DNA from: a virus
Strand: one strand, 5' to 3'
DNA: 11,659 bases
Virus genome (UHGV): UHGV-1582668
The notes under the pieces were generated by a model, which searched no databases, was not told the origin of the DNA, and saw nothing but the letters and a program-made list of their open reading frames with translations. The translations under genes were made by a program, and so were the position numbers. Positions 1 through 11,659 of the stretch are shown one piece after another. Every line of letters begins with the position of its first letter. Position 1 is the first letter of the stretch.

Positions 1-139
1 CAATCGACGATTGCTGGAAAGGCTGGGCCATACTCCTCCGGCAGAAGCAGAAAAAGCTTATTATGCTTCCATCGGAAACGATGATCTGGCAGCCTGAGTT
101 CACAGATAAAATACTCTCCAGGAAACCCGGGGCGGTTCA
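1..139 (+). mobile_element. 3' terminal fragment of an IS3-family insertion sequence (IS629/IS1203-like): last 31 codons of the transposase (2..97) plus the right terminal inverted repeat ending ...CCCGGGGCGGTTCA at 139; the rest of the element lies left of the window
   Basis: Frame starting at nt 2 translates to NRRLLERLGHTPPAEAEKAYYASIGNDDLAA followed by TGA at 95-97, a typical C-terminus of IS3-family OrfB/InsF-type transposases. The segment ends in ...TCA, matching the 5'-TG...CA-3' termini of IS3-family elements. Positions 1-139 are the exact reverse complement of 11521-11659. Assignment to IS629 specifically is from memory and unverified. Confidence 0.8.
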
Positions 140-163
140 AATGCCTGGTCAGCAACGCAGGAT

Positions 164-2284
164 ATGCGTGAGCAGATTATTGAGGCTCAGCGTTTCGTCC
201 GGGTGTCCGGCGCACAGTGGGAAGGCAGCACAAACGCTGGTTACTCATTTGATGAAGGCAGGTTTGAGCATTATCCGCGTTTTGAACTGAATAAGATTTC
301 CCGTGAATGTGATCGCATCATTGGCGAGTATCGACAGAATCGCATCAGCGTTAAATTCAGGCCGAAGGATGACAAGGCATCGGAAGCTTTAGCCGAAAAA
401 ATGAACGGCAAATTCCGCGCTGACTATCAGGAAACATCCGGTGGCGAAGCGTGTGATAACGCATTTGATGATGCCGTAACGGGTGGATTCGGTTGTTTCC
501 GCATGTGTGCCGATTACGAAGATGAAATGGATCCGAGTAACGAGCAGCGCCGCATCAGCCTTCTTCCTGTTTACGACCCAGCGACATGCGTCTTCTTTGA
601 TCAGGACAGCAAGCAATATGACCGCTCTGATGCTATGTGGGCTATGGAAATGTTCTCCATGACGCCTAAAGCGTTCGAGGCTGAATACCCTGATTCCATC
701 GCGGCAAGCCTTTCTCGTGATGACACTGGCACTCAATATGACTGGTCAACGCCAGATGCCATCTATGTTGGACGTTACTACGAAGTCCGCATAGAGAAGG
801 TGAAGCTCACGGCGTGGCGCAACCCTGTTAGCGGAGAAACGGCAATCTATGATGAAGATCAAATCAAAGATATTGTCGACGAGCTAACCGATGGCGCATT
901 CGAACTGATTGGTGAGCGAACGGTGAAGAAACGCCGCGTTTATTGCGGCCTTCTGTCTGGCGCTGAATGGCTGGAAGAACCGAAGCGTATTCCGGGCGAA
1001 CATATTCCACTCATCCCGGTATATGGGCGTCGCTCATTTGTTGATAATCAGGAGCGAATCGAAGGCCACGCAGCAAAAGCGATGGATGCACAGCGTCTTG
1101 AGAACCTGATGGTTTCCATGATTGCAGATAACGCCACTCAGGCTGGCGGTGATGGCATTCCTATCGTGGATGTTGATTTCATTCCCGGCCCATTAATGAA
1201 TCACTGGGCAGAGAGGAATAAGAAAAGACCTGCAGTTCTTCCTATGACCAGCAAGAAGGACAAAAACGGAACAGTCATTTCAGAAGCTCAGGTTGCTGGC
1301 TGGACACCTCCGACACAAATGCCGCCAGCTCTTGCCGGGCTATTGCAGTACACCGGAACGGCTATTCAGCAAATTACAGGTGCGTCGCAGCTTGAGAACA
1401 TGCCGAGCAACGTCGCTACCGATACCGTTGATAGCATCTTTAACCGGATGGACACGCAGTCCTATATCTACATGGACAACATGGCTAAATCCATGCGCCG
1501 TGCTGGCGTCGTGTGGCTTTCTATGGCTCGTGAAGTCTATGGCAGCGATACGCCAATGCGCATCGTTAATGAGGATGGCAGCGATGACGTGGCGCTGATG
1601 ACTGGTGAAGTGGTTGACCGTCAGACAGGGCAGGTTATCGCGCTTAACGACCTTTCGCAGGGTAACTATGAAGTGACTGTCGATGTCGGTCAGTCGTTCG
1701 CTACTCGCCGTGACGCAACGGTTAAGTCGTTACTTTCCATGCTGGCACTTATCCCGCCCGGAACGCCGAAACACGACCTTGTATCGTCGATGATCCTCGA
1801 CAATATGGACGGCGAAGGGATGGACGACCTTAAAGAATACAACCGCAATCAGTTGCTTCTGTCTGGAGTTATCAAGCCGAGAACGCCAGAAGAACAGCAG
1901 ATGGTTGAGCAGGCGAAACAACAACAGGCCAGTCAGCCAGATCCGGCTATGGTTGCTGCGCAAGGTCAGCTTCTTGCTGGTCAGGCTGAATTGCAGAAAG
2001 CGCAGAACGAGCAGGCAGCCATTCAGGTTAAAGCATTCCAGGCACAGACTGATGCTCAGGTTGCAGCGGCAAATGTTGTGAAAATCCTCGCATCTGCCGA
2101 TAGCCAGCAGAAATCTGATATCCGCGAGGCTCTGAAACTGCTCGGACAGTTCCAGCAACAGCAAGGAGACAATGCCCGTGCTGATGCAGAGCTTGTCCTG
2201 AAAAGTCAGGCACAGGGCCATGCGCAGCGCATGGACATCAGCAGCATCCTGCAAAAATCAACTCAGCAACAACCACAGCAGTAA
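164..2284 (+). CDS. Portal protein, P22 gp1 family, 706 aa from the first ATG; appears 5'-truncated by the IS junction at 139/140
   Basis: Long ORF at the expected position upstream of scaffold and coat. Translation shows motifs recalled from P22 portal (FRPKDD, ADYED, KKRRVY, GEHIPLIPVYG) and a Gln/Ala-rich C-terminal tail consistent with the portal barrel. Phage-derived sequence in this frame is open from nt 140 with no ATG or Shine-Dalgarno before 164; by offset against P22 gp1 roughly 13-20 N-terminal codons are missing. Confidence 0.88.
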   Translation: MREQIIEAQRFVRVSGAQWEGSTNAGYSFDEGRFEHYPRFELNKISRECDRIIGEYRQNRISVKFRPKDDKASEALAEKMNGKFRADYQETSGGEACDNAFDDAVTGGFGCFRMCADYEDEMDPSNEQRRISLLPVYDPATCVFFDQDSKQYDRSDAMWAMEMFSMTPKAFEAEYPDSIAASLSRDDTGTQYDWSTPDAIYVGRYYEVRIEKVKLTAWRNPVSGETAIYDEDQIKDIVDELTDGAFELIGERTVKKRRVYCGLLSGAEWLEEPKRIPGEHIPLIPVYGRRSFVDNQERIEGHAAKAMDAQRLENLMVSMIADNATQAGGDGIPIVDVDFIPGPLMNHWAERNKKRPAVLPMTSKKDKNGTVISEAQVAGWTPPTQMPPALAGLLQYTGTAIQQITGASQLENMPSNVATDTVDSIFNRMDTQSYIYMDNMAKSMRRAGVVWLSMAREVYGSDTPMRIVNEDGSDDVALMTGEVVDRQTGQVIALNDLSQGNYEVTVDVGQSFATRRDATVKSLLSMLALIPPGTPKHDLVSSMILDNMDGEGMDDLKEYNRNQLLLSGVIKPRTPEEQQMVEQAKQQQASQPDPAMVAAQGQLLAGQAELQKAQNEQAAIQVKAFQAQTDAQVAAANVVKILASADSQQKSDIREALKLLGQFQQQQGDNARADAELVLKSQAQGHAQRMDISSILQKSTQQQPQQ

Positions 2285-2374
2285 TTAACCCATAACGTGC
2301 AATGGCTGTCTTTATGAGGCCTGGCACCCTATTGCCTTCCGATGGGCTGAACATCGAGTAAACAGGGGTAACAA

Positions 2375-3268
2375 ATGGACCAGATGGCAGAAAACACACC
2401 AGAAGTTGAAATCGAAACCGACGCGTCAGAGCAGATTCCTGATGATGTCGAACTGGCTGAAAAAGTCGAAACAGAAGATGGCAGTGAGTCCTCAGGCAAT
2501 GATGCAGAGGAGGCTACTGAAACTGATGACGACGAATCAGAACAGGAATTCTACTTTGGTGACGAAAAGCTGGATTCGCCAACCAGCGAAGATGGCGCTG
2601 AGCATGGACTGGTAAAACACCTGCGCAAGACGATTAAAGAGAAAGACCGCGAGCTGAAAGAGCTGATGCGTCAGTCTCAGAAACCCGTCGAGCAGCAGCC
2701 GGTAATCACTCAACCACCGCGAATGCCAAAACTGGATGATGAGGACATCGGTTTCGATGAAGAAATCTACCAGCAACGCATGGCTAAGTGGGCAGAGGAT
2801 AATGGCAAGTACCAGCAACAGGAGATGGCTCGCAAGCAGAAGGAGCAGGAGCTTCAGGCTGCCTATCAAGAGCGATTATCCAAATATCAGCAACGTGTTA
2901 AGGCTCTCAAAGTTCCTGGCTATCAGGAAGCTGAGCAGGCCGTACTCGAGGAAATCCCCATCGAGACACAAAACGCGATCCTGTTTGAGTCAGAGAAGCC
3001 GGAAATCGTTGTTCTGGCGCTTGGTCGCAACGCTGAACTGCGCAAGCAACTGGCAGAAGCTACCAACCCCGTAGCAATTGGTCGTCTGCTGGAACGTATC
3101 GAATCGAAGGCCAGAATCATGCCAAAAGCAAAAACCACGGCAGCCACAACCCCGACGGTTAAGGGGAGCAACGGCGCAGTAATCAACAACCTCGACAAAT
3201 TGAAAGCCAAGGCGCTGGAAACTGGTGACTGGACGCCGTATTTCGCCGCTAAAAAGGCAAAAAAATAA
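2375..3268 (+). CDS. Scaffolding protein, P22 gp8-like, 297 aa
   Basis: Sits between portal and coat; size close to P22 gp8 (303 aa as recalled). Strongly acidic N-terminal third, charged and coiled-coil-like middle, basic C-terminus ending ...KKAKK as expected for a coat-binding helix-turn-helix. Shine-Dalgarno AGGGG 5 nt upstream of the ATG. Confidence 0.8.
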   Translation: MDQMAENTPEVEIETDASEQIPDDVELAEKVETEDGSESSGNDAEEATETDDDESEQEFYFGDEKLDSPTSEDGAEHGLVKHLRKTIKEKDRELKELMRQSQKPVEQQPVITQPPRMPKLDDEDIGFDEEIYQQRMAKWAEDNGKYQQQEMARKQKEQELQAAYQERLSKYQQRVKALKVPGYQEAEQAVLEEIPIETQNAILFESEKPEIVVLALGRNAELRKQLAEATNPVAIGRLLERIESKARIMPKAKTTAATTPTVKGSNGAVINNLDKLKAKALETGDWTPYFAAKKAKK

Positions 3269-3286
3269 CCTATTGGAGCATTAAGC

Positions 3287-4540
3287 ATGGCTAACCAATT
3301 AGCAAAAGACCTTGAAATCATGTTCGAAAACTACGTTGAAGGCTTTGAGGCCGCCTGCGTAGTTTCCCGTAACGCTAAAAAATTCCGTCCCGGTGATACA
3401 GCAATGCAGCGAGCAGGTGATGTTCTGTATCGTCCGCAGCATTACCACATGAATATTGAGGAAGGCCTCGACCTCAGCAGCAAAACGCCAACAGCACTGG
3501 TTCAGCGCCTTGTTCCTTCAGTGTTCAAGGAGCCGAAAAACATTCTGTACACTCTGGATGCGCGTGAAATGCGTGATCCGGAACATAAAACTGAAGCTGG
3601 TCGCGCCGCAGGTATGCGCCTTGCTGCACAGATTGACTCTGACCTGATTTCCATGGTCACGCAGCGTGCTACTAACGTGATCACGATGGCTGACTCAACC
3701 GCAGGTACACAGGGCCGTGATTTGTGGAACTGTGCGGCAGGTATTGATGCCACCATGACGGCGATTGGTGTACCTCAGGGTATCAACCGTCGCTCTTTCT
3801 GGAACCCCTTCAACTACAAAGACCTTGCTGGCGAGCTTGGTCACCGTGCCTATGCTCAGGGCGCAACCCTGACAGCATACGAAAAAGCGCAAATCCCTCC
3901 GGTTGCGTCCTTCGATAGCTACAAGACCGATATTTCTGGTCGATTACCGAAAGGAAGCACTGAATCCTTGACAGTATCAGGCCAACCTGAACACAAGGTT
4001 GAAGCGAAAGATTCAAATGGTATGCCAGTTGATAACCGACAGGGGACTATTACGGTATCTGCATCTGGCTTGCAGGTTGGTGATGCGTTCACCATTGCCG
4101 GTGTGAATTCCGTACACCAGATCACAAAAGATACCACCGGTCAACCGCAGGTATTCCGTGTTCTGGCTGTTAGCGGAACTACCGTAACAATTTCTCCAAA
4201 GATTCTCCCTGTTGAAAATACTGATGTTGCGAGTCGTCCATATGCAAACGTCGATGCCAAACCGGCAGAATCAGCAGCAATCACCATTCTCAACAAGAAC
4301 GCAGCACCTGCTAACCTCTTCTGGGCTGATGGTTCTGTTGAGCTGATGTACGGCAAACTGGCATTCCCGACAGGTCAGGGTCCACAGGTAATGACAGCAA
4401 CCACCGAGCAGGGCGCTACGCTGATCATGTCTTATGCCTTCGACCACATCAAAGGCGTAACCACTGCTCGTTTCACCACTCTGTACGGTTGCTCTGTACT
4501 TGTTCCTGAATATACGGGCATCGTTATTGCCGGGCAGTAA
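3287..4540 (+). CDS. Major capsid (coat) protein, P22 gp5 family, 417 aa
   Basis: Position immediately after scaffold; size near P22 coat (430 aa as recalled). Segments alignable to recalled P22 coat motifs (AKKFRPGD...MQRAG; NLFWADGSVELMY versus P22 NVFWADDAIRIV). GGAG Shine-Dalgarno 8 nt upstream. Followed directly by a strong intrinsic terminator, typical of a highly expressed coat gene. Confidence 0.88.
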   Translation: MANQLAKDLEIMFENYVEGFEAACVVSRNAKKFRPGDTAMQRAGDVLYRPQHYHMNIEEGLDLSSKTPTALVQRLVPSVFKEPKNILYTLDAREMRDPEHKTEAGRAAGMRLAAQIDSDLISMVTQRATNVITMADSTAGTQGRDLWNCAAGIDATMTAIGVPQGINRRSFWNPFNYKDLAGELGHRAYAQGATLTAYEKAQIPPVASFDSYKTDISGRLPKGSTESLTVSGQPEHKVEAKDSNGMPVDNRQGTITVSASGLQVGDAFTIAGVNSVHQITKDTTGQPQVFRVLAVSGTTVTISPKILPVENTDVASRPYANVDAKPAESAAITILNKNAAPANLFWADGSVELMYGKLAFPTGQGPQVMTATTEQGATLIMSYAFDHIKGVTTARFTTLYGCSVLVPEYTGIVIAGQ

Positions 4541-4546
4541 TTTTGG

Positions 4547-4569
4547 TGGGGCTTCGGCCCCATTTTTAT
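4547..4569 (+). terminator. Rho-independent terminator or attenuator downstream of the coat gene
   Basis: Perfect 6-bp GC-rich stem TGGGGC (4547-4552) and GCCCCA (4557-4562) around a TTCG tetraloop, followed by TTTTTAT (4563-4569). Begins 7 nt after the coat stop codon. Confidence 0.75.
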
Positions 4570-4581
4570 TGGGAGAAGACA

Positions 4582-4770
4582 ATGGCACGAACAATGCTCT
4601 ATAAGCCTGGCAACATGATCACCTGTGGTCAGTTTGCTGTCGATTACGTCATTGTTGATGACGAAGAAGTTAAATCTCACCTGAAAAAAGGTTGGGTAAA
4701 AACTCCTGAAGAAACCGCAACGAAGCAAAAAGTGGCTAAGGCGGAAGAAGATGGCGAAAACGAAGGGTGA
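4582..4770 (+). CDS. Small hypothetical protein, 62 aa, in the coat-to-gp4 gap (conserved small-ORF position in P22-like phages)
   Basis: ATG at 4582 preceded by a strong Shine-Dalgarno GGGAGAAG at 4571-4578. The ORF track's start at 4543 is a TTG lying inside the terminator hairpin and is unlikely to be used. The 3' end overlaps the gp4-like start by 20 nt. Acidic C-terminus (AEEDGENEG). Function unknown. Confidence 0.5.
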   Translation: MARTMLYKPGNMITCGQFAVDYVIVDDEEVKSHLKKGWVKTPEETATKQKVAKAEEDGENEG

Positions 4771-5212
4771 TCTCGTTCTAAAGGCTTTACGAAAAGCCGG
4801 GCTGTATTCCAATGCCACGTTGACAGATGCTGACCCTCAGGCAATTGAAGATGCCATTAATGACCTCGAAGACATGATGGCAGCATGGCAGGCTAAAGGT
4901 ATCGAGCTTGGATATCAGTTTGCTGATACAGAAAACGGCATCATGCCGTTACCTGACGATGATTCAGGTATCCCTGCATGGGCAAATGATGGCGTCGCTT
5001 TGAAACTCGCTGTGCAAGTGTGCATGGATAACGTCATTCAGCCGTCAGACGCTCTCCTTACCGCTGCTGACAGTGCATATCAGACAATCTGTATCGCTTT
5101 AACCAAAATACCACCACTTGAGCGGCGAAATGACATGCCTCGCGGTAGTGGTAACAAAAGCGCGTTTACGTGGAATCGGTTTTACATCGAGAAAGATGAT
5201 CCGAGTACGTGA
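4751..5212 (+). CDS. Tail accessory / head completion protein, P22 gp4-like, 153 aa
   Basis: Position and size match P22 gp4 (166 aa as recalled). N-terminus MAKTKGDLVLKALRKAGL...ATLTD resembles recalled P22 gp4 (KTKGDLVRAALRKLG...ATLTD); also a shared PRGSGN-type motif near the C-terminus. Shine-Dalgarno GGAAGAAG upstream. Confidence 0.8.
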   Translation: MAKTKGDLVLKALRKAGLYSNATLTDADPQAIEDAINDLEDMMAAWQAKGIELGYQFADTENGIMPLPDDDSGIPAWANDGVALKLAVQVCMDNVIQPSDALLTAADSAYQTICIALTKIPPLERRNDMPRGSGNKSAFTWNRFYIEKDDPST

Positions 5213-5221
5213 GGTGAATAA

Positions 5222-6640
5222 ATGCCGATTCAGCAACTTCCGCTTATGAAAGGTGTCGGCAAAGACTTTAGAAACGCCGACTATATCGACTATCTGCCAG
5301 TGAATATGTTGGCTACACCCAAAGAAATCCTTAACAGCAGCGGATATCTTCGCTCATTCCCGGGCATTGCCAAACGCTCTGATGTAAACGGTGTATCGCG
5401 CGGAGTTGAGTACAACATGGCGCAGAATGCTGTTTATCGCGTGTGTGGCGGCAAGCTGTACAAAGGAGAAAGTGAAGTCGGTGATGTTGCCGGAAGTGGT
5501 CGTGTATCAATGGCGCATGGTCGAACATCTCAGGCTGTAGGCGTTAATGGTCAACTGGTTGAGTATCGCTATGATGGCACGGTTAAAACCGTCTCAAACT
5601 GGCCTGCAGACAGCGGATTTACGCAGTATGAGTTAGGTTCAGTCCGCGACATTACACGCTTACGTGGGCGTTATGCGTGGTCAAAAGACGGCACGGATTC
5701 ATGGTTTATTACTGACCCTGAAGACGAATCGCACCCTGACCGATACAGCGCACAATATCGCGCAGAATCGCAGCCTGACGGCATTATCGGCATCGGAACA
5801 TGGCGAGACTTCATTGTCTGCTTTGGTTCATCAACGATTGAATATTTCTCCATGACTGGTGCAACCACTGTTGGTGCCGCTTTGTATGTCGCACAGCCAT
5901 CGCTGATGGTGCAGAAAGGTATTGCCGGGACTTACTGCAAAACGCCGTTTGCTGATTCGTATGCGTTCATCAGCAATCCGGCAACAGGCGCGCCTTCTGT
6001 ATACATCATCGGCTCCGGTCAGGTATCACCAATAGCCAGCGCGAGCATTGAGAAAATCCTCCGCTCCTACACTGCTGATGAACTGGCTGATGGCGTGATG
6101 GAATCGTTGCGGTTTGATGCTCATGAGTTGCTGATTATTCACCTGCCGCGCCACGTCCTCGTGTACGACGCATCTTCAAGCGCCAATGGTCCGCAATGGT
6201 GTGTACTGAAAACAGGCCTGTATGACGATGTGTACCGCGCTATCGACTTCATTTACGAAGGCAACCAAATTACGTGCGGCGATAAGCTTGAATCGATGAC
6301 AGGGAAATTGCAGTTCGATATCAGCAGCCAGTACGACAGGCAACAGGAACACCTGCTGTTTACTCCGTTGTTCAAAGCGGATAACGCCAGAGTTTTCGAC
6401 CTTGAGGTTGAGTCGTCAACTGGCGTTGCGCAGTATGCTGACCGCCTTTTTCTCTCTGCAACCACTGACGGCATCAATTACGGGCGTGAGCAGATGATTG
6501 AGCAGAATGAACCGTTCGTTTACGACAAACGTGTTTTGTGGAAGCGAGTAGGGCGCATCAGGAAAAATGTCGGCTTCAAATTGCGCGTTATCACGAAGTC
6601 ACCTGTCACTCTGTCTGGTTGCCAGATAAGGATTGAGTAA
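5222..6640 (+). CDS. Tail hub / packaged-DNA stabilization protein, P22 gp10-like, 472 aa
   Basis: Same length as P22 gp10 as recalled and the same position after gp4. N-terminus MPIQQLP... as recalled for P22 gp10. Shine-Dalgarno GAGGTG 5 nt upstream. Stop overlaps the next start (TAATG). Confidence 0.85.
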
Positions 6641-7341
6641 TGGCTGATTCGAATCTCAATGAGCCGGTAACAATTCAGGCTACACGACTCGATACATCAA
6701 TCCTTCCACGCAATATATTCAGCCAGTCTTACCTGCTGTATGTCATTAATCAGGGGGCTGATGTCGGCGCAATTGCCGGGAAGGCAAATCAGGCTGGTCA
6801 GGGCGCTTACGATGCCCAGGTAAAAAACGATGAACAGGATGTCGAACTGGCTGATCACGACGCAAGAATCACCGCAAACACAAAAGCGATAAATCTACTT
6901 GAGGTCAGGTTAACAACTGCCGAAGGGAAGATAGTCGTACTGCGTAGCGATGTTGATTACTTGCTGGATGAGGTTATCGATATTCAGGCGCATCTGGTCA
7001 CTGTTGACCAAAGACTGGATGACGTAGAAAACGATGTCTCTGGCATTAAGAGTGATTACGTATCGAAAACCGTAACCGAATCGCAGTCTCTTGCGTCACC
7101 GCTGGATGTAAAAACATCATATTCAGTTGATGGAATTCAGGTTGTTGGAGCAAGAAATACCGGATGGACTGCAGCCACAGGTACACCTCTTCTTGGCTCA
7201 TTCAACGCTAACCAGTCATACACGGTCGGCACTACGTACACACAATCCGAAGTCGCGGCTCTCGCTACAGGTTTGCAGCAGGCGCGGCAGCGTATTCTGG
7301 CGATTGAAACGGCACTTAGATTACATGGGCTGATTGACTGA
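6640..7341 (+). CDS. Tail needle (cell-puncturing plug) protein, P22 gp26-like, 233 aa
   Basis: Same length as P22 gp26 as recalled. N-terminal region ([20 protein letters not shown]) followed by a heptad-repeat coiled-coil-like centre and C-terminus ...[20 protein letters not shown], matching the trimeric needle architecture. Translationally coupled on both sides (TAATG, TGATG). Confidence 0.85.
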
Positions 7342-7796
7342 TGATTACATTCAAACCAACGCGAAACATCGACCTGATAGAAGCCGTAGGAAATCACCAT
7401 GACATTATCGCCGGGAGCAACAACGGTGATGGATACGACTACAAACCTGAATGCCGTTACTTTGAGGTGAACGTGCACGGGCAGTTCGGCGGAATTGTTT
7501 ACTATCAGGAGATTCAGCCGCTAACCTTTGATTGCCACGCCATGTACCTGCCAGAGATTCGCGGCTTCAGCAAGGAAATCGGGCTGGCGTTCTGGCGATA
7601 CATTCTGACTAACACCACCGTTCAGTGCGTCACATCGTTCGCTGCACGCAAATTCCGCCACGGGCAGATGTACTGCGCAATGGTTGGCCTTAAGCGTGTA
7701 GGAACCATCAAGAAATACTTCAAAGGCGTGGATGACGTGACGTTTTACAGCGCCACACGCGAAGAACTAATCGACTTCCTGAATCACGGGAGATAG
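7341..7796 (+). CDS. Hypothetical protein at the P22 gene 14 position (gp14-like head assembly / DNA-delivery accessory), 151 aa
   Basis: Located between the needle and the first ejection-protein gene, where gene 14 sits in P22. Start overlaps the needle stop (TGATG). Contains several Cys and His residues. Assignment rests on position only; I cannot confirm sequence similarity from memory. Confidence 0.5.
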   Translation: MITFKPTRNIDLIEAVGNHHDIIAGSNNGDGYDYKPECRYFEVNVHGQFGGIVYYQEIQPLTFDCHAMYLPEIRGFSKEIGLAFWRYILTNTTVQCVTSFAARKFRHGQMYCAMVGLKRVGTIKKYFKGVDDVTFYSATREELIDFLNHGR

Positions 7797-7798
7797 CC

Positions 7799-8488
7799 AT
7801 GTTATATGCATTTAAGCTGGGCAGAAAACTGCGCGGCGAGGAACCTTATTGCCCTGAAAAAGGCGGGAAAGGTGGCTCCGATAAAAGTGCAAAGTATGCC
7901 GCAGAAGCTCAGAAGTATGCCGCAGACCTGCAAAATCAGCAGTTCAACACCATCATGAATAACCTGAAGCCGTTTACTCCTCTGGCTGAGAAGTATGTCG
8001 GCAGCCTCGAGAACTTATCGTCTCTGGAGGGGCAAGGTCAGGCACTTAACCAGTATTACAACTCTCAGCAGTATAAAGACCTTGCAGGTCAGGCTCGCTA
8101 TCAGAGTCTGGCGGCAGCGGAAGCAACAGGTGGATTGGGTTCCACCTCAACCAGTAATCAGTTAGCAACAATCGCACCAACGCTTGGTCAGCAATGGCTA
8201 TCTGGACAAATGAACAACTACCAGAATCTGGCAAATATTGGTCTTGGCGCGCTTCAGGGGCAGGCAAATGCTGGGCAAACATATGCCAACAACATGAGCC
8301 AGATTTCACAGCAAAGCGCGGCTCTTGCAGCGGCAAACGCCAACAGACCATCAGCAATGCAATCTGCTATTGGCGGAGGTGCGTCTGGTGCCATTGCTGG
8401 GGCTGGACTTGCGAAATTAATTGGTTCATCAACTCCGTGGGGGGCTGCGATCGGCGGCGGTCTTGGTCTGCTTGGCTCGTTGTTTTAA
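7799..8488 (+). CDS. Ejection (DNA transfer / injection) protein, P22 gp7-like, 229 aa
   Basis: Same length as P22 gp7 as recalled; N-terminus MLYAFKLGRKLRGEE... matches my recollection of gp7. Gln/Asn/Ala-rich centre and a Gly/Ala-rich hydrophobic C-terminal tail (AIGGGASGAIAGAGLAKLIGSSTPWGAAIGGGLGLLGSLF). Shine-Dalgarno GGGAG upstream. Confidence 0.8.
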   Translation: MLYAFKLGRKLRGEEPYCPEKGGKGGSDKSAKYAAEAQKYAADLQNQQFNTIMNNLKPFTPLAEKYVGSLENLSSLEGQGQALNQYYNSQQYKDLAGQARYQSLAAAEATGGLGSTSTSNQLATIAPTLGQQWLSGQMNNYQNLANIGLGALQGQANAGQTYANNMSQISQQSAALAAANANRPSAMQSAIGGGASGAIAGAGLAKLIGSSTPWGAAIGGGLGLLGSLF

Positions 8489-8497
8489 GGGGTAATC

Positions 8498-9913
8498 ATG
8501 GCTACGTGGCAACAGGGTATTAATTCTGGTGGTTTTCTGGCTGGCATCGGTACGCAAAATGAGAATGCGCCAAAGGCAAGCGACATTAACGCAACGCTTG
8601 GTCTGATCCGCGAAAACAATGAACTGGCTCGCTCAGGTGCAAATAACATTGGTCTGACCGCGTTACGTGGTCTGGCTGGAGTTGCTGATATTTACAATCA
8701 GGAACAGCAACAGAAAGCTATTAGTGCGTTCAATAAGGTTCACGCTGATGCATGGGCTTCTGGTGATCCATCTGGACTATTTAAGTTTGCCCAGGAAAAT
8801 CCAGCGTTTGTTGCACAGGCACAACAGGCGTTTTCCGGTCTTAATGAGCAGCAACGCAACGATATGGGCGATTTAGCCATGAGGGCTAACGTCGCTCTTT
8901 CCCAGGGACCGGAAGCCTACAGTAAATTCATTACTGACAACAAGGACAGGTTAAATCGCGTGGGGGCGAATGCTGACTGGATGATTCAGACAGGTATCCA
9001 GAATCCAGAGCAGCTATCACACATGCTGACTACTATGTCTCTCGGTGCGCTTGGACCAGAAAAGGCGTTTGCTGTTCAGGACAAGATGGCTGGTCGTGAA
9101 ATTGACCGAGGCAAACTGGCAGAGACAATCCGCAGCAATCAGGCTGGAGAAGCACTTCAGGCGAGAGGGCAAAACCTTTCCTATCAGTCAGCAATGACTG
9201 GGCACAATATCGCAGCACAACGCTTGGCTCTGGATCAGCAAGAGTTCGGGTTTAAGATGCAGCAAGCGCAGGAAAAGGCTCAGCAGTTGATTAGTGAAGC
9301 ACCTAAGCTGTCAGTAAACATGGAAAAAGGCATCGAGACGGCTGTAAACAATGCCACAGCATCATCAAACTCAGCCAATTCTATGAGTGCGCTTGCTCAA
9401 CAGTTCAGAGCAGAAAAACCAACGACAGGTTTGTTCGGTAACGCACAGAACATGTTCGCAAAACTTACCGGAAGCGATACGACATTGCGTGATTTGCGCA
9501 TCCGCCAAAATGCCCTTGTTAACAGTCAGGTTCTTAAATTCCTACCTCCCGGCCCAGCAACGGATAAAGACGTTGAGATCGTTCGACAGGGTGCGCCAAC
9601 TGACATGGATAACCCTGAGACGGTCGCAAGATGGCTTGATGCAATGGCAAACCTTGAGCGACGAAACGCGCAGTTTAATGAGTTTAAAGCCGAGTGGATG
9701 AGCGCGAATGGCAACCCTGGACAATCGCGTAATGGCGGTCAGATATTGGGGTTGGATGTTAAAAAAGGTGAATCACTGGGGAGTGCCGTTAAGCGGTATA
9801 TGTCAATGAATACTGACGCAGCGCCAGCACAAGATTCGACACCTTCAGGAGAACCACGGAATCAGGTTGGATCATATACCTCAAAATCAGGCATTCAATT
9901 TACGGTGGAATGA
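8498..9913 (+). CDS. Ejection (DNA transfer) protein, P22 gp20-like, 471 aa
   Basis: Same length as P22 gp20 as recalled and in the conserved order gp7, gp20, gp16. Shine-Dalgarno AAGGGG upstream; stop overlaps the next start (ATGA). Confidence 0.75.
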
Positions 9914-11523
9914 TGAAAGTAACTGCAAACGGTAAGACATTTACCTTTCCTGATGGTACGAGCACCGAAGATATTGGGGCCGCCATTGATGAGTATTTTG
10001 CTGGTCAGGCTGTTCAGCAACAAACAGTTAATCAGGCCAATAATGCACCAACACGGGAAGAACCATCATTGATGCAACAAGCTGGCGATTGGCTCACAGG
10101 TGGTCAAAGTGCAGGGCAAATTGCAGAACAGGCTGGTCGTGGTCTGGTAAACATACCATTTGACGTATTGCAGGGTGGCGCAAGTCTGATTAATGCAATC
10201 AGTCAGGGGCTTGGTGGTCCAAAAGTATTGGATGATGTCTATCGTCCAGTCGATCGACCGACAGACCCTTATGCGCAAACTGGAGAAACAATTGGCGGGT
10301 ATTTAGTTCCAGGAGTTGGAACGGCAGGAAGCATGGCTATTGGATCACTGGCAGAGGCCGCAAATCAGAAAGGCGATTTCGCACAAAATGCAGCAAAAAA
10401 TGCCGGAGTTAACCTTGCCGCTCAGGGGGTTCTTTCCGCAGCAGCAAAGGGAATAGGGCGTGGAATAACGGCTATAAAAGGTGATATTGCGCCAGAAGTG
10501 GCGAAGAAAATTGCCACATCAGAATCGATGGGCGTGACACCAATGACATCTGATGTTATCCCGCCGAAAAATGCTTTCACTCGCGGCCTTACTCAGGATG
10601 CCGAGGGGGCTTTGCTCGGGACAGGTTCAAAGCGTGCGGAGCAATATGCAAAAAGAAGTCAGCTAGTTAAAAAACAGCTTGAGAAATATGGTGAATATAG
10701 CCCATCAGTTGTTGTTGACGATCTGTATGGTTCTCTGAAGTCAAGGAAGGATTCAGCTGGAAGCGTTATTGAAGACATTACAACTAAAATGGGAGATACA
10801 CCTGTTGACACATCAAAATCCATTAAGGTTATCGACAACGTGCTTACCAGGGCTAACAGGCTTGGGAAAGTGGCAAATAAGGATTTGATTCGCGGGCTAT
10901 CCGATTTGCGAGAAGAGCTTGCTAAACCAGATGTAGATTTTGGACTATTGAGAGAGTTGCGGTCAGCATTAAGGGAAAGTATTCAGGGAGATGCCATGGT
11001 TTTTCCTAATAGCGCGAAAGCCGCAACTGATGCCGTGGAGAGGGCAATGGGTTCAGATTTGAGGAATAACGCAGCACGGTATTTGGGGGCTGGAGAGGCT
11101 GCCAGATACGTCAAAGCAAACTCTGACTACTCCAACGTCTTCAATAAGGTTCTCAATAAAAGGATTGCGAACAATCTCAACAAAGCTAAAAAAGAGTTTA
11201 CTCCAGAGCTAATAAACAGCGTTGTATTCAGCAGAAAACCATCAGATATTAAGAGGATATGGCCTGCTCTTAGTGAAGATGGAAAGAACGCTATGCGTGC
11301 TGCTTATATTAGCAAGATTGCAGAAAAGGCAGGAGACTCGCCAACAAAATTTCTTACCGAGTTAAATAAGTTGAAGTCGCAATCTGACGGTCAGATATAT
11401 AACACGATATTCAGTGGGAGACACATGAAAGAGCTTGATGCTCTTCATGAAGTTCTACAGCAAACAGCAAGGTCAGACATCGCAAATGTTGTAACTCAGA
11501 CAGGGCAATCGCAAGCCAACTGA
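9910..11523 (+). CDS. Ejection (DNA transfer) protein, P22 gp16-like, 537 aa; apparently 3'-truncated, with its stop codon supplied by the first three bases of the flanking IS end
   Basis: Third gene of the conserved ejection-protein trio. ORF ends on TGA at 11521-11523, which is exactly the terminal TGA of the IS inverted repeat, so the reading frame runs straight into the IS. P22 gp16 is about 609 aa as recalled, implying roughly 70 C-terminal codons are missing. Confidence 0.7.
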
Positions 11524-11659
11524 ACCGCCCCGGGTTTCCTGGAGAGTATTTTATCTGTGAACTCAGGCTGCCAGATCATCGTTTCCGATGGAAGCATAAT
11601 AAGCTTTTTCTGCTTCTGCCGGAGGAGTATGGCCCAGCCTTTCCAGCAATCGTCGATTG
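11521..11659 (-). mobile_element. 3' terminal fragment of a second, inverted IS3-family insertion sequence copy (IS629/IS1203-like): transposase C-terminal 31 codons on the minus strand (11563..11658) plus terminal inverted repeat beginning TGAACCGCCCCGGG at 11521
   Basis: Exact reverse complement of positions 1-139 (139 of 139 nt). Same features as the left copy in the opposite orientation; the element body must lie right of the window. Confidence 0.8.

Follow-up and report, generated by a model that had tools for sequence, protein, structure and literature searches.

Truncation of a gp16-type ejection protein gene at the terminus of an IS629/IS1203-type element in a P22-like Escherichia coli prophage

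Results

A late operon segment between two IS ends

The DNA analysed here, called the window throughout, is a stretch of 11,659 nt (UHGV virus genome UHGV-1582668) which an exact-protein look-up identified as the complete MEGAHIT contig ena:ERZ27234353:k141_191. Its principal features are the following:

1..139, + strand: IRR (right, orfB-proximal) end of an IS629/IS1203-type element of the IS3 family, transposase on the + strand
140..11520, + strand: stretch of the late (virion) operon of a P22-like prophage, 11,381 bp, identical to positions 5001..16381 of the intact PA45B prophage (L003)
140..2284, + strand: P22-type portal gene without its first 18 codons (54 nt), compared with the intact L003 gene
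9910..11523, + strand: truncated gene for a gp16-type ejection (DNA transfer) protein, 537 aa, without the C-terminal 72 aa
11518..11520, + strand: AAC, the final native codon (Asn) and presumed 3-bp target site
11521..11523, + strand: TGA stop codon, the initial three bases of the IS terminal inverted repeat
11521..11659, - strand: IRR end of a second, inverted copy of the same IS, transposase on the - strand, toward gp16

Between the IS ends (140..11520) the genes follow the order portal, scaffold, coat, gp4, gp10, gp26, gp14, gp7, gp20 and a C-terminally cut gp16. The gp16 gene lies directly after homologues of gp7 and gp20, as it does in P22, in a late operon collinear with those of P22 and PA45B. 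The domain records place P22_gp7 and Inj_translocase genes immediately upstream of the gp16-type gene, PF26808 was precomputed for its product and Pfam P22_portal is recorded for the portal product; Rfam and tRNA scans of the window gave no matches. When the whole window was compared by megablast with 5,426 complete E. coli genomes, at least 16 of them were found to be 100.0% identical over 140..11520, and the alignments to intact prophages ended exactly at window positions 140 and 11520. As a reference we used the intact P22-like prophage of E. coli PA45B (NZ_CP021288.1, 2556592-2580167; L003), to which the window is base-for-base identical over the entire phage segment. A 28-nt direct repeat, 82% identical, is present at 2444-2471 in the scaffold gene and at 6838-6865 in the gp26-like gene and probably reflects chance or shared codon usage.

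The gp16-type ORF (9910..11523, + strand) begins with an ATG and ends with the TGA at 11521-11523; the RefSeq start of the intact gene is the second ATG, at 9913. In PA45B the gene extends over L003 14774..16600 and encodes 609 aa counted from its first ATG, or 608 aa if the second is taken as the start. The position of the breakpoint is unambiguous, reading ...CAAGCCAAC|AGGATAAGG in the intact allele and ...CAAGCCAAC|TGAACCGCC in the window. After ...CAAGCCAAC the PA45B gene goes on with AGGATAAGGACG... for 72 more codons, while the truncated product terminates in ...TGQSQAN. The first-pass annotation had described this ORF as running unbroken to 11520 and stopping on the TGA of the IS terminus, with a product of 537 aa against about 609 aa for P22 gp16. 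This description of the ORF and its stop holds, two full copies of the IS beginning exactly with TGAACC, and P22 gp16 does have 609 aa (PMC8954989). Read in either of the remaining frames, the IS end would append 13 or 53 residues ahead of a stop, so the donated in-frame stop is a one-in-three accident of frame without special meaning. If AAC at 11518..11520 is the 3-bp target site, as we presume, the second copy of the duplication would lie past the IS and outside the contig.

At the left edge, window position 140 corresponds to L003 5001, which is codon 19 of the intact portal gene (L003 4947..7145, 732 aa). The callable portal ORF (164..2284, 706 aa) starts from an internal Met; the portal frame is open upstream to position 110 within the IS, but without a start codon there. 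Neither the missing 54 nt of the portal gene nor the missing 219 nt of gp16 occur elsewhere in the window. The earlier proposal that the portal gene is truncated at an IS end, and that both edges of the phage segment break precisely at IS ends, therefore holds: positions 1..139 are IS, the portal gene lacks its first 18 codons, and the same IS end is found on both sides in inverted orientation. Read outward, the 7 nt beside the IS ends (140-146 and 11514-11520) share 4/7 bases (AATGCCT vs GTTGGCT), which is too few for calling a target preference.

Identity of the insertion sequence

The window itself contains only the final 139 nt of each IS copy. On the left, positions 1..139 carry the last transposase codons and their stop at about 2-97, and the element ends with ...GGCGGTTCA at 139. 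On the right, the sequence from 11521 to the end of the window (TGAACCGCCCCGGGTTTCCTGGAGAG...) matches at 100% identity the termini of 1310-bp elements that many E. coli genomes carry under the annotation 'IS3 family transposase'; related copies are annotated as 'IS3-like element IS1203 family' transposase. Since positions 1..139 are the exact reverse complement of 11521..11659 and phage DNA begins at 140, the two IS copies have opposite orientations, the orfB/IRR end of each pointing toward the phage DNA.

Full copies of the element are present in an IMG/VR contig (L004 9741-11050), in E. coli 4/2-1 (NZ_CP023834.1; L014 1601-2910) and in an O157:H7 genome (L013). All three are 1310 bp long, about 96% mutually identical and bounded by TGAACCGCCCCGG.../...CCGGGGCGGTTCA termini, and the first 139 nt of the L014 copy are identical to the IS end of the window. 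Transposition of IS3-family elements is of the copy-out-paste-in type and generates short target duplications. Such 3-bp duplications flank the copies in L004 (ATC) and L014 (CAG), both of which start exactly with TGAACC, so the TGA at 11521-11523 belongs to the IS. The terminal inverted repeats are imperfect and of the form 5'-TG ... CA-3', with TGAACCGCCCCGGGTTTCCTGGAGAG at the window ends and TGAACCGCCCCGGAAATCCTGGAGAC at the other end of the full copies. The organization of the ~1.3-kb element, with orfA and orfB connected by a programmed -1 frameshift and a DDE (rve) transposase, is seen in L014, and rve domains were also found over the 608 nt of IS sequence in another contig (L016, see below).

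In its termini (TGAACCGCCCCGG...) and, for the full copies matching the window ends, in the length (1310 bp), the programmed orfA/orfB frameshift and the 3-bp duplications, the element resembles IS629, IS1203 and IS3411. IS1203 and IS3411 are isoforms of IS629 that diverge by ~4-5%, and IS629 produces target duplications of 3-4 bp (PMC3271280). Identity to a copy annotated as IS1203 family is ~96%; as to the named isoforms, the best-matching full copies are labelled only 'IS3 family' in RefSeq. The choice of a prophage as target is likewise shared with IS629, 62% of whose copies in O157 genomes lie inside prophages (PMC3271280).

The missing C-terminal tail is a family-wide feature

The window protein is 68% identical to P22 gp16 over all its 537 residues, and it coincides exactly with the first 536/537 residues of the E. 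coli protein of 608/609 aa (RefSeq 'P22-gp16 family phage DNA ejection protein'). The alignments with Salmonella phage P22 gp16 (609 aa) and with gp13 of phage Emek (636 aa) continue through the breakpoint, and both of these proteins possess the tail, with identities over its 72 aa of 47/72 and 63/72, respectively. Alignment to P22 gp16 had been suggested as a check, and it places the C-terminal region outside the window protein. Unlike P22 gp16, the window protein does not have the conserved residues equivalent to P22 538-609, including the SieA-escape site P546, and the stop codon of its gene is supplied by the IS.

Pfam-A and NCBIfam scans, with sets that do not include recent gp16 models, gave no match for the truncated or the intact protein, and PHROGs profiles were used for family assignment in their place. 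On PHROG 770 (668 positions) the window protein covers positions 1-584 (phrog_770, E = 1.1e-229) and the intact protein 2-663, and the missing 72 aa alone match positions 586-663 (E = 3e-23). What the window protein does not contain is a conserved C-terminal segment of the type ...MRLYESK..LLRLANTK.GTPAYERAL.... Among the 120 nearest cluster representatives from a collection of 5.8 billion proteins, 119 have the TPAYERA motif near the C-terminus and 113 have a length of 608-611 aa. DNA coding for the tail is present in 392 complete E. coli genomes, with an identity of 90-95% in most (333 records).

These comparisons bear directly on the alternative that the gene is naturally about 537 codons long and that the IS inserted just downstream of its natural end. 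The only relative of about the right length is the one representative without the motif (P0001, 539 aa); however, it is cut by the end of its contig and is already three residues into the tail (...QSQANRIR), and it therefore lends no support. No homologue of about 537 aa ending at the equivalent residue was found; the allele that is 100% identical goes on for 72 codons, the tail is part of the PHROG 770 profile and is found in 119/120 nearest relatives, and the stop codon itself is IS sequence. On comparative grounds we consider a naturally short gene refuted, its remaining probability being vanishingly small. The gp16 gene of the window is effectively a pseudogene, encoding a truncated member of the PHROG 770/PF26808 family. 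The uninterrupted allele, the profile and the nearest relatives together support the original view of an IS-mediated disruption as opposed to a natural gene end.

Recovery of the junctions in different assemblies

The perfect terminal inverted repeat of the window has a length of 139 nt, which is k-2 for k = 141. Since this length equals k-2 and the same IS end lies on both sides, the contig ends most plausibly mark the points where the assembler stopped on entering a multi-copy repeat and are not biological termini. A short-read metagenome contig that ends within a multi-copy repeat might also be a chimera, with an intact gp16 gene in the real genome, and indeed none of the 5,426 complete E. 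coli genomes has either the gp16|IS or the portal|IS junction. Yet the identical gp16|IS junction was recovered in four assemblies: MEGAHIT ERZ27234353, SPAdes ERZ857894 and ERZ1743281 (the latter contig being the same as OKPB01000366.1) and Logan SRR3132449. The SPAdes and Logan contigs each stop 28-55 nt into the IS, so that overall the contigs enter it by 28 to 139 nt, approximately as expected for a transition from unique to repeated sequence at the word size of each assembler, and the breakpoint is situated exactly at the canonical IS terminus. A chimera is extremely improbable in our estimation. The portal|IS junction was also found in ERZ857894, on a contig (L016) whose 608 nt of IS sequence agree with the L014 copy at every position. 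Recovery by different assemblers and from different samples argues that the junctions are real and stem from a lineage that has been seen repeatedly.

Records of the 537-aa product come from ENA and Logan assemblies only. A scan with degenerate patterns for both inner junctions yielded only the known right-junction contig in metagenome_contigs and none in genome_contigs; a pattern match in viral_contigs, L004, was dismissed as chance, the same IS having inserted there at another place, in a gp20-like gene. The 40-mer CAATCGCAAGCCAACTGAACCGCCCCGGGTTTCCTGGAGA could serve as a tag sequence for identification of the host lineage.

The ERZ857894 contig carrying the gp16|IS junction (NODE_504; L006 1-747) has no match to the window left of 8490, at the gp7/gp20 boundary. 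This mismatch suggests that in ERZ857894 the junction resides on a mosaic variant, or that two related prophages are present. According to the contig names the coverage is 8 for L006 vs 25 for the portal-side contig.

Three contigs that carry the allele without interruption (L010 11617, L011 2914 and L012 2521), one of them from an NCBI isolate and the other two from Logan runs, each break off 9-11 nt beyond the IS insertion site. Contigs L008 and L011 share their start at window position 8618, and a k55 contig (L007) starts 25 nt earlier. These offsets in contig starts and ends point to a repeat in common with a second P22-like prophage of those samples: it looks as if a gp20-gp16 module of ~2.9 kb is flanked by such shared sequence, with its right boundary ~18 nt from the IS site. 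A mosaic boundary at the insertion site itself was considered as the reason for the ends of the three contigs and rejected, the complete genomes placing the boundaries ~100 nt either side and not at the site.

Discussion

We are almost certain that a copy of a 1310-bp element belonging to the IS629/IS1203/IS3411 group entered the gp16-type gene of this P22-like E. coli prophage and thereby cut off its last 72 codons. It inserted between AAC, the codon for Asn at residue 537 (609-aa reading), and AGG, which comes next. Since both IS ends start with 5'-TGA and the insertion falls exactly between two codons, the first IS triplet is read as a stop, giving a product without added residues. A second, inverted copy of the IS similarly cuts the portal gene after codon 18, leaving an 11.4-kb virion module bracketed by two IRR ends. 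There is no evidence against the insertion itself. The phage DNA has zero substitutions with respect to intact prophages over 11.4 kb, which suggests that the insertions are recent.

Two simple insertions would be expected to give an IS left end followed by AAC-AGGATAAGGACG... on one side and ...TTTGATAAT followed by an IS left end on the other, with 3-bp duplications. The segment might instead be the remnant of an IS-mediated deletion or inversion, in which case the distal gp16 and portal portions, along with the remaining prophage, would be gone or located elsewhere; we treat this as a sub-alternative within the main explanation, the mechanism of truncation at 11520/11521 being the same. Scans for the reciprocal (outer) junction patterns, such as an IRL end followed by AAC and AGGATAAGG..., found none in viral_contigs or genome_contigs. 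A protein search with the predicted 118-aa chimeric ORF at this edge (the readout of the IS left end, N and the 72-aa tail) did not detect any fusion of an IRL readout to a gp16 tail, but brought up dozens of IRL-readout ORFs joined to other flanks, and such ORFs are thus called and indexed. Together the two negative searches lean slightly towards the distal part not being adjacent, and other E. coli contigs do show deletion remnants at the gp16 3' end (e.g. P0149 and P0130). On the other hand, the candidate set of the chimeric-ORF search was incomplete, full-length proteins that share the tail being unlisted, and two recent simple insertions would agree equally well with the zero divergence and with the known preference of IS629 for prophages. 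A remnant is thus a serious possibility that falls somewhat short of an even chance; since the candidate set was visibly incomplete, we moderately favour simple insertions in spite of the negative searches. The two remnant proteins deserve a brief description. P0149, from E. coli, has a terminase-like N-terminus fused to the gp16 tail, implying that the whole virion module has been deleted, and P0130 is another 5'-cut gp16 remnant in which homology begins 8 aa ahead of the breakpoint described here. The gp16 3' end seems to be a frequent edge of prophage remnants.

With two inverted copies of one IS at its borders (1..139 and 11521..11659), the segment has the arrangement of a composite transposon, and the 11.4-kb module could conceivably act as such or as a cassette exchanged by recombination. 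Phage structural genes would then move between genomes or prophages, and this might explain why the junctions recur in several metagenomes but were found in none of the complete E. coli genomes searched. There is no positive support for mobility of the virion module as a composite unit, which we regard as very improbable.

As for the functional consequences, P22 gp16 is packaged into virions and is required for the DNA to cross the inner membrane, and gene 16 mutants of P22 form virions that fail to deliver their DNA (PMC10883804). Judging from the conservation of the tail only, the truncated gp16 of the window is likely to have lost its function. Part of its activity could survive, since Perez et al., as cited in PMC10883804, found P22 gp16 to associate with membranes in vitro even when residues 476-609 are missing. 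The possibility that the missing tail contains a transmembrane helix was considered as well and rejected: hydropathy is moderate only (0.91 over 19 residues), and the tail falls within the residues (476-609) described there as dispensable in vitro. The prophage as a whole is very probably defective, since the portal gene has lost its start and the link to the upstream terminase genes and the late operon, and gp16 its family-wide tail.

Two changes in P22 gp16 that allow escape from SieA, G532W and P546S (PMC10883804), are located on either side of the breakpoint, the former five residues ahead of it and the latter nine residues beyond. The breakpoint is thus placed between the SieA-sensitivity residues G532 and P546 of P22 gp16, and a natural truncation at this position could be an idea for a reagent, though it does not reveal new biology.

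The disruption of a prophage gp16 gene by an element of the IS629/IS1203 group is of an ordinary, well documented and already known kind, and the present case adds one further example of IS629-type elements inactivating prophages. It differs from known IS629/IS1203/IS3411 insertions in E. coli and Shigella prophages in its site, at which none of the 5,426 complete E. coli genomes searched carries this insertion. Annotations should treat both the 537-aa ORF and the portal ORF of 706 aa as IS-disrupted pseudogenes of a defective prophage and not as variant proteins, and the 139-nt inverted contig ends as assembly breaks at a repeat and not as phage or transposon termini. A comparable event is found in IMGVR_UViG_2534681702_000004 (L004), another P22-like prophage, whose gp20-like ejection gene is interrupted by an element of the same IS group (9741-11050) between copies of an ATC duplication. 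It differs from the window in the gene, the site and the host genome, and in showing both flanks, by which a simple insertion is demonstrated. L004 represents a second case of this IS group striking genes for ejection proteins.
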